Assembly: GCA_049320885.1 (NCBI GenBank)
Contig: JBMORA010000048.1
Coordinates: forward strand, 11,396-75,395
From: Thermodesulfobacteriota bacterium
GTDB taxonomy: Bacteria > Desulfobacterota > Desulfobacteria > Desulfobacterales > SURF-7
Length of the DNA: 64,000 nt
Direction of reading: 5' to 3'
Made by a program: the position numbers. This document shows, in pieces, positions 45,001 through 63,000 of this stretch. Each line of letters begins with the position of its first letter. Position 1 is the first letter of the stretch.

Positions 45001-48000
45001 TTCCCCTACACCATGCGCATGATCGCCAACTACTTCGTGGATCAATCCGCGGCCATCGTCATGACCAGCGAGGAAACGGCCGATGAGATCGGCATCCATC
45101 CGTCCCGGCGCATATACCCCATGGGCGGAGCCGGCCTCTGCAACATCTGGAATATGTCACGGCGGGCGGATCTGACCGATTCCCCGGCCTTGCGCGAGGC
45201 CATCTGGCTGGCCCTGGATCAGGCCGGAATCCGGACCGAGGACATCGATTTCTTCGATCTGTACAGCTGTTTTCCCTCGGCGGTGGAGATCGCCTGCCGG
45301 GAGCTCGGCATCCCGGAAAACGACCCCCGGGACCTGACGGTCACCGGCGGTCTGCCCTATTTCGGGGGGCCGGGAAACAACTACTCCCTGCACGCCATCG
45401 CCGGAGTCGTGGAAAGGCTTCGCGCCAACCCGGGACAGAAGGCTTTGGTCACCGCCCTGGGCTGGTACAACACCAAATGGGCCGTCGGTATTTATGGCAG
45501 TCTGCCCGGTGCCCATCCATGGGAGGAATCCGATTATTCCGCCATTCAGGAACGCATCGACGCGGAAGCCCTGCCGGAACCGCTGGAAGCGGCCGAGGGG
45601 AATCTATGTATCGAAACCTATGTCATCGGCCACGGCCGCGCCGGCGAACCGGACCACGGAATTGTCCTGGGCCGTCTGGAAAACGGCCGGCGGGCCTTCG
45701 CCAGGATCGACGCAGCCCCCCGAATTCTGGAAGAAATGGAAAAAACCGAGCTGATCGGATTGTCCGGCAGGGTCCGGCATGACGGCGACAGCGGATACAA
45801 TTACGTCACCATCGAAGGGTTTTGATCCCTACCGCAGCGGGAAAGGCGGGCCGGCGCCTTTCCCGCCACTCCTCTAGATAAACTTCAGGTATTTGCTCTT
45901 CACGCTGATCAGTTCTTCACTGGTCAGTTTCAGGCGGCCCGCCAGGGTCTGCGCGAAAATCCGGTACAGGATGTAATACAGGGAGGCTTTCTCGGATTCG
46001 CTCAAGCGGTGCATGCTGGTATTGTCGATGGCCAGGCAGACGACATCCTCTTCCGCATATACGCTGGCGGTTCTGGAAAACTCGCCCAACAGGCTCATCT
46101 CGCCGAAAATATCTCCCCGTTTATCCAGTACGCACAACGGCCTGCCCTTCTTGGTGACGCGGATTCGGCCGAAAATCAGGATATACAGGTTGCCGTCATA
46201 TGTGCCTTCCGTGATGATCTCTTCACCGGTTTTGTATTTGCGAATTTTGCTGAAGGCCAGCAAACGCTGGAGATCATGATCGCTGAAAGGACTGAGCGTC
46301 GGGATACGCTTCAAATCCGGAATGATTTTCTGGTTTGTTCCCAATGAAATGGATTCTAGCATGACGGCACCTCACTTGGTTTTGTATTCAATGCATGCCT
46401 TGCATGTCGATTATTTCTTTATCAAGTACTGTGCCAACTCGAAGGGTCTGATTGAATCATATGTGATAACAGGCAACTTTCAGCGGTTGGCCCGTACGGA
46501 AGACGGGAAAGACCTGTTCACAAAAAAAGACAGCTACGGACGTGGACTTTATCTTTTTGTCAGCGATGTCGACTTGCATGAAAGTGAATCGAAAAAACTG
46601 TGCGCGGAATGCAAGCATTAAACACTCGTCGGTGTGCTATCATTTTTAGCTGTTAAAAATAAAAATGAGCCGGAAAGTTCTTGGGGATTCGACGGCCATC
46701 ACGACTGGCCGTGGTGGTACCGGCAGAGGATCTATTTCCTCGGCCATCTGTACGGGCCGGCCTGATTCGGCCCCGGAACGAATCATTCATACTAATTCCA
46801 TCCGAAAATTTTTAGTTCAATGCCCCACCCCCGAGCTAACCGGCTGATCGCGACGGCTGATTATACAATATTATATAATTTTTTAGAGATTTATATTGTA
46901 AATGGAATTATTCCGGCGGGCCGCCGTTATTAGCTGAAATGAACTATTTCATCCATGGTTAATTTTTGCTAACTTATTGTTTTTTTTATGAATATCTTGA
47001 CAAACCTCCGCTTTGTCATTATAAAGCAACTCCTTTCAACAAATCGTTAAAAAAAGGGTAGAGCCGATAACGCATGAACAGAATCCGACAACTATTACAT
47101 TCGAAAAAACGGTTGGTTGACGGCCTTGAGTTCCCGGACATCACCAAAGCCTCGGAAGAAGGCGGCTGCGGTGTTGTCGGCTTTTGCTGCACCAAGCCGG
47201 TTCCCGGACGTCATATCTATGAACCGTCGAGATTGATGCACAATCGCGGCAACGGCAAGGGCGGAGGGATCGCCGCGGTGGGACTCGTTCCGGAACAACT
47301 CGGCGTCGACCGCCGCGTTCTGGATGATTGTTATATGATCCATGTCGCCTTTTTGGATGCCGGCGTGCGCCCCGAATTGGAAAAAAAGTATCTTACACCG
47401 TACTTTGATGTGGAAACATCCCGCAAACTCGACACGGTGGATGACTGGACGGCCATCGCCGGACTGGAAGTGCGACCGCCGGATGTCTGGCGCTATTTTA
47501 CCCGCGTCAAGCCGCCGGTTCTGGACGCCTTCATCCAGGAAAACCGGCTTGAAACCATCTCCCGGCGCGAAGCCGAGGAAGAATTCGTCAGTCAAAACAG
47601 TTTCAAGCTGAATCAGGAATATTACGCCTCGCTGAAGAATCAAAAAGCCTTCGTGCTGTCCCACGGCCGGGATATCATGATCCTGAAGGTGGTCGGCTAT
47701 GCCGAGGCCATCGTCAAATATTATAAAATCGAGGAACTCGCCGCGCATGCCTGGATCGCGCACCAGCGTTTTCCCACCAAGGGCCGCGTATGGCACCCGG
47801 GTGGCGCCCATCCGTTTACGGCCATGAATATGGCCCTGGTCCATAACGGCGACTTTGCCAATTACCACTCCGTCACCGAATACCTGCTCCAGCGTCATAT
47901 CTATCCGCAGTTCATCACGGATACCGAAGTGTCGGCCCTGATGTTCGATCTGCTCAACCGCACCTATAAATATCCGCTTGAATACATCATCGAGGCCCTG

Positions 48001-60000: not shown

Positions 60001-63000
60001 ATTACCGCTGGACGGCGGATATGCTGCTTTCCACCTGGAAAATGGCCGAAACCGGGGCCCCGCCCCCGGCAGAATATGAATATGATTACCTCGCGGGCCA
60101 ATCCGGCGGCGGTTTTGACCGGATCCGTTTTCGATTCCCCGAAAAACCGCCCGTGGAACTGCGGGACGACGAGATCGACACCAGCATCCCCCTGAACCGC
60201 CGCAACGACGGCCGCCCCCAGCTCCGGATCGACGTCCCCTGGTATGGCGGCGGCATGTCCTTCGGTTCGGTGAGCAACGCCACCCAGCTTTCCAAGGTGC
60301 GCGCCGCCGCGGCCTGGAACACCTTCTCCTGTTCCGGGGAAGGCGGCTACATGGAACGCATGCGGCCCTATGACGACCATATGATCACCCAGGTGGCCAC
60401 CGGCCTTTTCGGCGTGCGCGAGGAAACCATTCAGCGCGTGCCCATCATCGAATTCAAGTACGCCCAGGGCGCCAAACCCGGTCTCGGCGGGCATCTGCTG
60501 GGGGACAAGAACACCCCGGCCGTGGCCAAAATACGGGAAGCCGTGGTGGGCATCTCCCTCTTCTCCCCGTTTCCCTTCCACAGCGTGTATTCCATTGAAG
60601 ACCACATGAAGCACCTGGACTGGATCAAGCATGTCAACCGGCGCGCCCTGCTGTCCACCAAGGTTTCCACGCCCACGGACGTGGATATGGTGGCCGTGGG
60701 CAGTTATTCCGCCGGCACCCATATCATCCATCTGGACGGCGGCTACGGCGGCACGGGCGCGGCCCCGGACATCGCCAAAAAGAATATCGCCATGCCCATC
60801 GAGTACGCCATCGCCAAGGTCCACAAATTTCTGGTGGACGAGGGCGCCCGGGAAAAGGTCACCCTGATCGCGAGCGGCGGGATCCGCACGGCCCATGATA
60901 TCGGCAAGGCCATCGCCCTGGGCGCCGACGGCGTCGTGGTGGGAACATCCGAGCTGATCGCCCTCGGCTGCGTCCGCTGCTCGCGCTGCTCGGCCGGCCG
61001 CGGCTGCCCCCGGGGCATCGCCACCACCGATCCGGGGCTGGTCACCCAGATGGACCTCGAATGGGGTACCCAGCGGATCATCAATCTCTACAACGCCTGG
61101 CGCGTGGATTTGATCACCATCCTGAAACGCTTCGGCATGCGCAGCGTGCGCGAACTGGTGGGCCGTTCCGACCTGTTGATGCATCTTGATTTTACGAATG
61201 ACGTGAAAAAGAGGTCCGGGTCCGCTTAAGCGCCAGGTTCACTTGAATCGTTTAATCGTACCGGGTGTGGAAATAATTCTTATGCTGTACCTATCCTGGA
61301 GTCAGTAACCAGAAGTCGGAATTCAGAATAAAATTAGGAATGACCCTTTACAAGTTAGTGTCCATCCAGAAATACTAGTTTTTAACCCTGGAGGCAGACC
61401 CAAAAAGCTACTCAATTGACATAGTGAAGATTTTTTCAGCATAAACCGATATCGGAAAAAGAAATTGCTTCAATTTGTCATCATACGGACGCACCTATCC
61501 CATGTATCGGTAGATTTTCCTTCGACCGGCCTGTTTTTAATGAGCCGGCAATTTGGCTCGCGCAAGGGTCAGAAGGTTTGCCGCCACAATAGAGGACCAG
61601 ACATACGATTTGAATGCTTCCCAACCTTTCCAATTGCAGCGTGTAAGTCCCATGCAACGTTTCAACCACGATATTCCGGATTCAATACCTGCGCGAAAAC
61701 AGCGCAACCGATGATACACATTCTCGCTGCGGCACATATCGGTTTCATTGAGACCACGTTTTTTGGCAAAACAAACATCCTTGATATTTCGATCCTTTGC
61801 AAGTTTCAGATTGTTTTTGGAGGCGAATCCGCCGTCGAAAGATACTTTGAGCGGATAGCGATTATAAATTTCTTTCTGGCGGTCGAGCATCGAAATCGCC
61901 AAATCCACATCGGCCGGATTGCCGCGCTCGATTACACAGTCCAGAATCAAGTTGGATGCCCCACCGGTAAGGCAAATCTTGTGGCCGTAAATCGTATCAC
62001 GCCGATCCTTGACAATGATGTCGGTATGCGGCTCAAAAATAGAGACAACTTTTTCCTAGGCAGGGACCTTCTCAGCCATTACCACCCGCCGATGTGTCTG
62101 ATTGACGACTCTTTCGGCAAGCAGGGCATACTGCTTGATTTGATTCAACAAGGCATATTTGCATTTGTTGCGGACATTATATCGCTGCGTGTACACACCA
62201 TCGATTTACCTCAAACATCGTGACAAATTCATTTTAGGCATTTTTGCGGGAATATGGTAAAGCGACGGCAGAAGGTAGAATGCGGCGATCCGGATCCCGA
62301 ACATATCCGTCGTTTTCGTGAGCAAATCCTGAAAGTCGACGCAATCCTTGTCATTCCTGAAAAGGATTTGCCCCCGCCTGGCTCGGCTCATTACTTGATG
62401 CCAAGCATCCGGATATTCAATTCGCAATGGTCTTGACGGTTTCTGTCAGATACCCCCATTAAGGTCAAAAGGAGACTTGACCCCTCTCTGACCCCTCTCC
62501 CATAAACCGCGCTTTTCACCCTCGAAAAGCGTTTCTAAGCATGAAAAACAGCCCCGTTTTTCCATTCATTTCATATTAAGTTTAGCAGTTATCTCGGTCC
62601 GACTATCCGGCGGACTGTCCGGCCTTCTCAACTGCCTGATAACATACTATTATCTCAGCAAAATAGGCTGCACGGATGGTTTTTCGTCACAAGCGATTGA
62701 TCTGGCAGCGCAAATGATATAAATAATATCTTGACTATACGAGGATCAAAGTCGAGGAGGGACCATATGACCGCAAGAGCCGAACAAGTGCTGGCCGAAG
62801 CGCTGATGCTGCCGCCTCATGAGAGGGCGCAGTTGGCGGAACAGCTTTTTACCAGCCTGGATATATCGGATGAAGAAATAGAGCGGTTGTGGGCCGAGGA
62901 AGCCGAAAGCCGCATTGATGCGTATGAACGAGGCGAGATAAAAACCGTATCCGCAGAGGACGTTTTCAACGATATCCGCCGCCGATGAAGGTTGAGTTCC

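Follow-up and report, generated by a model that had tools for sequence, protein, structure and literature searches.

Archaeal-type split glutamate synthases, encoded by gltB1, gltB2 and gltB3, have GATase and GXGXG each encoded by a gene of its own, together with just one FMN subunit. The N-methylglutamate synthase MgsABC, linked to gmaS and mgdABCD, takes methylamine as its amine donor. F420-linked forms of the archaeal-type enzyme have also been mentioned (bioRxiv 2021.09.25.461819). The Hdr-type methylene-THF reductase HdrCBA-MvhD-MetVF has been described in Moorella thermoacetica and Sporomusa ovata, and the available passages of that work (PMC9430772) place a GltD-like insert in the Moorella HdrA and report that bifurcation coupling was not observed in S. 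ovata membranes. The available part of the account of Desulfobacterium autotrophicum (PMC2702500) describes HdrL-MvhD, in which an HdrA with an insert resembling the glutamate synthase small subunit is followed by mvhD, often with selenocysteine. Here we analyze a 64,000-nucleotide stretch of a Thermodesulfobacteriota genome (hereafter, the window) in which genes of this kind are joined to those of a glutamate synthase. A description of this operon was not found in the literature searched, most subscription papers and supplements being outside the reach of that search.

Operon layout and synthase subunits

The operon comprises ten genes at positions 47074-61229 of the window, all on the + strand and tightly packed: neighbors overlap slightly or lie no more than 47 bp apart. 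Gene calls backed by Pfam/NCBIfam matches give the order GATase-GXGXG, hdrC, hdrB, hdrA(L), mvhD (selenocysteine), metV, mvhD, metF and two GltB2-like subunits, just as a preliminary description had proposed. A candidate Sigma70-like promoter (46997..47025, +; TTGACA, 17 bp spacer, TATAAA) lies 77 bp upstream of the first gene; both its hexamers are conserved in another locus (L001), where the spacer has diverged, and the consensus scan did not return this site. Promoter and terminator counts were at chance level, no Rfam family was found within 45800-62000, and consensus motifs for NrpR, sigma54, GlnR, NtrC and Rex showed no enrichment across 32 upstream regions.

The first gene (47074..49734, +; 886 aa) encodes a class II glutamine amidotransferase (PF13522, below cut-off) fused through a linker region of about 200 residues to a GXGXG beta-helix (PF01493). 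Its GATase is only remotely related to GltB, and Cys32, Arg58, Arg232, Asn258, Gly259 and Asp283 show no substitution in 88 aligned rows (81-88 filled; 81 for the Cys); apart from Cys1, the roles of these glutamine-site residues are presumed. FMN2 (59595..61229, +; start probably TTG at 59640), which bears an N-terminal ferredoxin domain, matches PF01645 with 294 bits and Azospirillum GltB with an E-value of 3.6e-50. The equivalents of Gln934, Lys937, Arg957, Glu978, Lys999 and Thr1030, numbered by counting on the Azospirillum GltB alignment and which we take to form the 2-oxoglutarate site and to include the loop-4 Glu, are kept in 72 of 72 rows. As judged from these alignments, GATase and FMN2 retain the residues predicted to serve glutamine hydrolysis and 2-oxoglutarate reduction.

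The preliminary description spoke of two FMN subunits; these are paralogues but not equivalent, and only FMN2 is predicted to be catalytic. FMN1 (58253..59674, +) has 12 invariant Cys, a ferredoxin domain and an invariant stretch at 117-157, and it lacks the substrate loops and most of the flavin loops; its structure model (pLDDT 80.2) superimposes on the GltB FMN domain with Z 25.5 and an rmsd of 3.9 over 332 residues. It thus has the features of a non-catalytic Fe-S pseudo-barrel, a degenerate paralogue of that domain whose Cys set would accommodate three Fe-S clusters. Direct homology of FMN1 to the GltB central domain was considered and set aside: the profile comparison returned a probability of 1.1 (E 0.047), the fold is that of the FMN domain, and the motif likeness is by eye only.

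The Hdr half and the altered MetF protein

HdrC (49762..50331, +) has Fer4 domains, with TIGR03290 as best match (below cut-off), and HdrB (50328..51206, +; PF02754) keeps both CCG motifs intact, with ten Cys that do not vary among 39 sequences. DsrC is unlikely as a general partner of HdrB, having been found in only 11 of 36 hosts. HdrA (51207..55697, +; start probably 51228) is of the HdrL/Moorella type, with two HdrA modules. The equivalents of Glu356 and Lys409 are present in 28 of 28 sequences for module 1 and, for module 2, in 26 and 28 of 28, respectively. Residues ~160-575 form a GltD/NfnB-like NAD(P)H domain, which reaches 332 bits with TIGR01318 against a cut-off of 483 and in which YRR occurs in 7 of 28 sequences and mostly SLE in the remainder. 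By its sequence HdrA combines the bifurcation signature with a domain for NAD(P)H, and the label "GltD-less" given previously to this synthase holds for the absence of a separate gltD gene, not for HdrA itself. Since the Moorella HdrA has such an insert too, the insert is no sign of a link to the synthase.

MvhD1 (55745..56197, +; PF02662), the Hdr-side [2Fe-2S] protein, is a putative selenoprotein: its gene begins at 55745, with an in-frame TGA at 55799, a position occupied by Cys in 34 homologue matches and by TGA in 8, and the genome encodes two tRNA-Sec and selA. In MetV (56194..56862, +; PF12225), 13 Cys are each shared by 62-63 of 63 sequences. MvhD2 (56895..57293, +; PF02662), on the synthase side, belongs to a divergent subfamily with four Cys invariant in 56 rows, from which the second Cys/Sec of the Hdr-side motif is absent.

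The MTHFR-fold protein that follows (57333..58238, +), here termed MetF*, has a model (pLDDT 86.9) that matches Thermus MTHFR with Z 29.1 and an rmsd of 2.6 over 273 residues. Its degenerate state had been overlooked in the preliminary description. Alignment to solved MTHFRs places a His at the catalytic Asp120 position in the window protein and Tyr, Phe or His in relatives; a bulky Tyr or His occupies it in 34 of 34 MetF* rows, whereas other MetF rows have Asp (10/11) or Glu (1/11), and a bulky residue replaces Asp120 in all 119 readable top homologues as well. The Thr59-type position and the beta8 loop are also changed, while Glu28 (34/34) and Gln183 (31/34) are kept; the loss of an aromatic residue read as the Phe223 equivalent was not counted, the alignment register there being unsure. 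Asp120 of MTHFR has been termed invariant and essential (PMC9900621), and the D120N enzyme is left with 0.3% of kcat, although a reductase family devoid of flavin accepts residues that are not acidic at this position (PMC11094777). The folate site of MetF* appears to have been lost. MetF* sequences form one clade (SH-aLRT 99) and are strongly conserved (mean identity 69%).

Linkage and distribution across genomes

The hdr genes lie directly 3' of the GATase-GXGXG gene in 38 of 53 GTDB loci. Three of these have the window's order, 32 a rotated order (mvhD-metF-FMN1-FMN2-GATase-hdrC-hdrB-hdrA-mvhD-metV) and three are cut upstream, and the junction between GATase and hdrC is short across loci (4-138 bp). 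The linkage is far beyond chance, and the fear that it reflected an accidental operon fusion has not been borne out. In 80 loci retrieved by MetF* alone, mvhD always precedes MetF*, FMN1 comes next in 79 and hdr is reached in 63; the remaining 17 comprise 15 that end prematurely and two that break within FMN2. All 17 additional MetF* loci begin in the same order, and 14 extend to hdr. Among the 30 top loci an electron-transfer gene (mvhD, metV or metF) always stands 5' of FMN1, and mvhD was upstream of the synthase genes in 37 of 40 phylum loci fetched, so that an earlier count of seven in ten loci with the synthase genes alone could not be reproduced. These 40 loci include 18 six-gene forms with a canonical, Asp120-bearing MetF beside the same synthase, eight with mvhD alone and four with mvhD-metV; the 12 forms without metF indicate that folate chemistry is dispensable. 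In addition, hdrA adjoins the synthase genes in three separate lineages, an FAD-linked oxidase, an alternative donor module, is fused ahead of FMN1 in three 2,530-aa proteins, and NuoF replaces the NAD(P)H module of HdrA in two planctomycete loci.

The hosts of the ten-gene operon are uncultured anaerobic bacteria of about eight phylum-level groups, no cultured host being found among the homologue records retrieved. The ten-gene form arose once, and its spread therefore represents one joining event followed by retention. The pairwise distances of the ten genes correlate at 0.68-0.93, which mirrors this shared descent and is not counted as proof of co-evolution. We found acsB in 10 of 36 hosts, including the window's genome, and did not find it in 26 (completeness being known for three genomes only); another MTHFR-family gene is present in all but one or two hosts, the window's genome having canonical MetVF on two other contigs (C16 and C28). 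An ordinary large GltB is additionally present in 28 of the 36 (in pieces in four), and the window's genome has, as previously noted, a second glutamate synthase on another contig (C33), itself split and with a GXGXG-GltD fusion. Routine nitrogen supply is hence not the whole explanation. NrpR, Amt/PII or GlnA genes lie within 17 of the 80 MetF* loci, and the first 93 loci include 20 with glnA, six with Amt/PII and five with NrpR; gmaS and mgdABCD, for which no dedicated search was made, were absent among the recurring neighbor genes identified.

A proposed redox chain and its relation to known systems

The ten genes would probably encode a single redox chain, in which a glutamine-dependent glutamate synthase is fed from NAD(P)H and MetF* acts as a flavin relay rather than a folate enzyme. 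NAD(P)H would be oxidized at the HdrA insert, and electrons would pass from the HdrA flavin through MvhD1, MetV, the MetF* flavin, MvhD2 and the FMN1 clusters to FMN2, an order of carriers taken from gene order and analogy only, for the end reaction Gln + 2-oxoglutarate + 2e = 2 Glu. More tentatively, the HdrA flavin might couple this strongly downhill step to a further redox partner, which could be an acceptor of low potential or a thiol/disulfide at HdrB. The glutamine and 2-oxoglutarate couple lies at about -60 mV, and ferredoxin reduction by bifurcation is estimated at -10 to -33 kJ/mol with this sink and at a marginal -4 to +12 kJ/mol with methylene-THF (-200 mV). Bifurcating coupling is thus thermodynamically possible. 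The preliminary suggestion of a synthase drawing on a bifurcating Hdr complex finds support, as to the drawing of electrons, in the cross-phylum linkage, intact catalytic residues and nitrogen-regulatory neighbors, with bifurcation itself only possible. It is conceivable, if rather doubtful, that this is an electron-bifurcating glutamate synthase in the full sense: a Moorella-type Hdr complex with glutamine and 2-oxoglutarate replacing methylene-THF as high-potential sink and MetF as a wire, with FMN1 as an extant intermediate on the way from a duplicated FMN domain to the GltB central domain.

A MetV-MetF* pair that remains active on methylene/methyl-THF, or on a related pterin, with an altered pocket, with the Hdr half reducing the carrier or the synthase half oxidizing methyl-THF (-200 mV) for glutamate, seems unlikely. 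The canonical MetF of the six-gene forms, the retained Glu28 and Gln183 and the strong conservation of MetF* fit such a shuttle, but the consistently bulky residue at Asp120, the altered Thr59-type position and beta8 loop and the loci devoid of metF argue against it, as does an oxidizing MTHFR of Sphingobium that retains Asp120 (PMC11868366). We give little credence to the view that the Moorella-type Hdr complex and a synthase fed by ferredoxin are independent enzymes that were joined once and travel as a transferable block without any exchange of electrons. The single origin, the scattered occurrence (4 of 41 near relatives) and decayed copies (L021/L129, L177 and L213) would suit that reading; the genes, however, are interleaved, lone metV and lone metF falling in different halves of the commoner order, a dedicated second MvhD is present, MetF* is tied to the synthase in 79 of 80 loci, and all ten genes retain a mean identity of 47-80% across phyla. 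Very improbable, lastly, is a different reaction, be it glutamate oxidation in amino-acid fermenters or the use of another acceptor or amine donor: the second synthase of most hosts, the split enzyme on C33 and the remoteness of the GATase from GltB speak for it, and the invariant glutaminase and 2-oxoglutarate-site residues and the glnA, Amt/PII and NrpR neighbors against it.

Since the folate reductase of the Hdr module appears to have lost its folate site, the hosts may assimilate nitrogen by way of an energy-coupling redox complex. For energy-starved anaerobes (syntrophs, sulfate reducers and fermenters of peat and sediment), this points to an unstudied way of assimilating ammonia. If bifurcation holds, nitrogen assimilation would regain some of its ATP cost in the form of low-potential electrons. 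The electron source of split glutamate synthases and the role of Hdr-MetVF complexes outside acetogenesis are made testable, and MetF* genes, which their sources annotate as "methylenetetrahydrofolate reductase", can together with their hdr neighbors be miscounted as Wood-Ljungdahl markers in metagenome-derived genomes.

Compared with the Moorella-type Hdr-MTHFR, as given in the available passages of PMC9430772, the operon shares the same six gene types and an HdrA of similar build (1,496 aa here, 1,487 aa there), with two TrxR-like modules, the Glu/Lys signature and the GltD insert; it differs in its MetF* without Asp120, second MvhD, three synthase genes and hosts mostly without detected acsB. 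In D. autotrophicum, the name HdrL refers to the GltD-like insert alone, and the accessible part of PMC2702500 names no neighboring large-subunit genes. With the NADPH- or ferredoxin-dependent GltB/GltD (available part of PMC8097209; PDB 1ea0, 1llw), the synthase shares the GATase, FMN synthase and GXGXG domains and catalytic residues, but it is made of three chains in a new arrangement, without central domain or separate gltD gene, and has four rather than three Cys at the FMN-proximal cluster and N-terminal ferredoxin domains. The archaeal-type split synthase likewise has a ferredoxin-fused FMN subunit as its own gene and an adjacently encoded donor module, whereas in the operon GATase and GXGXG are fused, the FMN subunit is duplicated into one putatively catalytic and one degenerate copy, and the donor module consists of MvhD, MetV, MetF and Hdr.

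The ten-gene operon and its conservation

As the preliminary description had claimed, the glutamate synthase genes flank hdr, mvhD and met genes on one strand: re-reading of the window gave the order GATase-GXGXG (here GATase), hdrC, hdrB, hdrA, mvhD1, metV, mvhD2, metF, FMN1 and FMN2 (47074-61229, + strand), the ten genes overlapping slightly or lying no more than 47 bp apart. A candidate sigma70-like promoter, also present in locus L001, lies 77 bp 5' of the first gene. Neither flank is related to the operon: a cNMP-binding gene and a thiolase lie 5', and a piece of a transposase 3'. 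The mvhD1 gene contains an in-frame TGA at a position that is Cys in 34 homologous hits and TGA in 8, and the genome, which is 98% complete, encodes two tRNA-Sec and selA. Elsewhere the window harbors caspase-domain and DUF4384 genes (1972-4941), a PEP-CTERM protein and, after it, a metallophosphoesterase surrounded by several small ORFs that have no Pfam match (13351-19347), a complete operon for complex I (nuo) in which nuoA and nuoB are separated by a CBS-domain gene and which includes two NuoM-like genes (28947-44262), and a transposase fragment (DDE_Tnp_1) followed by a type II toxin-antitoxin module, a pair of small genes of which the second encodes a ParE-family toxin (61537-63296).

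The operon is real and conserved. The hdr genes directly follow the GATase gene in 38 of its 53 GTDB loci, three of which present the order of the window and 32 a rotation starting at mvhD2-metF, the remaining three being cut; the other 15 loci comprise one cut at that point, four cut upstream, five with mvhD-metV-metF-FMN1-FMN2-GATase and no hdr genes (the six-gene form) and five with the synthase genes alone. A search started from MetF alone, in which neighboring genes were not selected for, returned 80 loci, with some genomes appearing in more than one of the locus sets counted here. In all 80, mvhD lies 5' of metF; FMN1 lies 3' of it in 79, the remaining locus stopping 11 bp further on, and hdr genes are reached in 63 (15 end too early and two break within FMN2). 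In a closed Bacteroidales chromosome (L129:14930-18736) hdrA breaks off near residue 1020 and continues into a PorP/SprF domain, and the fetched region lacks mvhD1-metV; the locus has either decayed or results from an assembly join.

A synthase with exchangeable donor modules

Every catalytic residue checked in the alignment is kept in GATase and FMN2, with residue numbers counted on an alignment. FMN1 retains 12 invariant Cys but is missing the substrate loops and the majority of the flavin motifs, and comparison of structure models suggests a fold like that of the GltB FMN domain. FMN1 matches occur in 94 of 301 genomes of the phylum, three being weak hits in 2,530-aa frames. Among 40 loci picked from such genomes, favoring long contigs, three present the ten-gene form, 18 mvhD-metV-metF, four mvhD-metV, eight mvhD alone, four hdrA adjoining the synthase in two other layouts, and three no donor gene; the constant partner of the synthase genes is MvhD. 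In 11 of 82 FMN1 frames the protein is fused to FMN2, and proteins of about 2,530 aa (two domain-scanned, three mapped) unite a GlcD/LdhD-like FAD-linked oxidase, Fe-S domains, FMN1-like, FMN2, GATase and GXGXG domains in one chain (L124:5969-13552, - strand; L125:3189-10799 and L126:6777-14378, + strand). Judged from sequence, these fusions argue that the three synthase genes form one enzyme, with donor modules joining in front of FMN1. We can only guess that the single-chain fusions are possibly glutamate synthases that a 2-hydroxy acid feeds, for example lactate or 2-hydroxyglutarate.

The L124 fusion gene sits between glnA and carAB; glnA is found in 20 of the first 93 loci, and NrpR, Amt/PII or glnA in 17 of the 80 MetF loci. 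A distant FMN-binding gene of the glutamate synthase family (~525 aa) also recurs near the synthase operon in eight of 93 loci (e.g. L037:1612-3189).

MetF, HdrA and the proposed electron path

The MetF of the operon (MetF*) has a predicted MTHFR fold and keeps Glu28 and, mostly, Gln183. In MTHFR, passages of PMC9900621 have Asp120 anchoring the pterin, and passages of PMC11094777 report 0.3% of kcat for D120N and tolerance of other residues in a flavin-free family. This position is Tyr, His or Phe in 34 of 34 aligned MetF* rows and in all 119 readable sequences among the 120 best homologues. It is changed by pattern in 78 of the 80 loci, the other two having His and Thr, but this set is no free test of the motif because one of its two search patterns contained the change. 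The acid is kept in six-gene MetFs and the other MetFs of the genome, 11 of 11 taken together. On contig C28 of the same genome, metV and metF flank a gene that weakly matches nitrate-reductase-gamma, a membrane haem protein (L133:7785-10733), which suggests a membrane-linked MetVF.

HdrB keeps all ten Cys, and both HdrA modules carry the Glu/Lys signature. In the HdrA insert, seven of 28 rows show an NADPH-type motif and most of the remainder an acidic motif. In two planctomycete loci a NuoF-like insert with a [2Fe-2S] module replaces the GltD-like one (L044:2591-8705; L128:2489-7522, - strand); in the related locus L127, MetF has Thr where Asp120 would be expected.

Gene order, module swaps and analogy suggest that NAD(P)H most likely enters at the HdrA insert and that electrons would then reach FMN2 by way of MvhD1, MetV, MetF*, MvhD2 and the clusters of FMN1. 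Sporomusa pull-downs, in passages of PMC9430772, show contact among MetVF, MvhD and HdrAB. The operon products probably constitute one functional complex. The synthase couple is estimated from free energies to lie at about -50 to -90 mV, which, unlike that of methylene-THF, suffices for bifurcation to reduce ferredoxin. It speaks against simple bifurcation that the NAD(P)H module occupies the ferredoxin domain, which serves as the ferredoxin site in methanogen HdrA; hence electrons from NAD(P)H and from thiols may instead converge in this wiring. The same passages of PMC9430772 report no coupling in Sporomusa, which also counts against simple bifurcation.

Hosts, spread and relation to known systems

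By record title, carriers comprise Desulfobacterota-type deltaproteobacteria, Bacteroidota, Ignavibacteriota, Verrucomicrobiota, Planctomycetota, Chloroflexota, Spirochaetota and FCPU426, all of them metagenome bins or uncultured. The distribution is patchy: MetF* occurs in four of 41 near relatives and is absent from one of two same-genus genomes. The GATases of the ten-gene form make up a single clade nested within the wider family (23 of 71 rows, FastTree support 100, after removal of 17 near-duplicate rows and of broken ones), a nesting that fits a single origin followed by lateral spread. Among 36 hosts, completeness being known for three, acsB is found in 10, DsrC-family genes in 11, an ordinary large GltB in 28 (24 whole, four in pieces) and a further MTHFR-family gene in nearly all. 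The acsB and GltB counts imply that the operon is no Wood-Ljungdahl module and is usually an extra glutamate synthase of its host. The genome studied here carries acsB, dsrC and several further HdrL and MetVF sets, and the second glutamate synthase previously noted on its contig C33 is indeed present as a split enzyme (GATase-like gene, ferredoxin-FMN subunit and GXGXG-GltD fusion) adjoining carAB-like and purF-like genes (L131:5534-10713, - strand).

The joined system was not found described in the literature searched, the main texts of mostly open-access papers, nor in passages of PMC2702500, PMC6085437, PMC8515935, PMC4911364, PMC11868366, bioRxiv 2021.09.25.461819 and PMC5736913, for the last of which its absence had already been reported. 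A categorically new mechanism is plausible. The architecture of HdrA matches that of Moorella HdrA as described in passages of PMC9430772, and FMN1 fits the idea, found in passages of PMC8097209, that the GltB central domain may derive from a duplicated FMN barrel; a profile test gave no support for FMN1 as a direct homologue of that domain. The parts are known individually, and the joined system is a new variant built from them.
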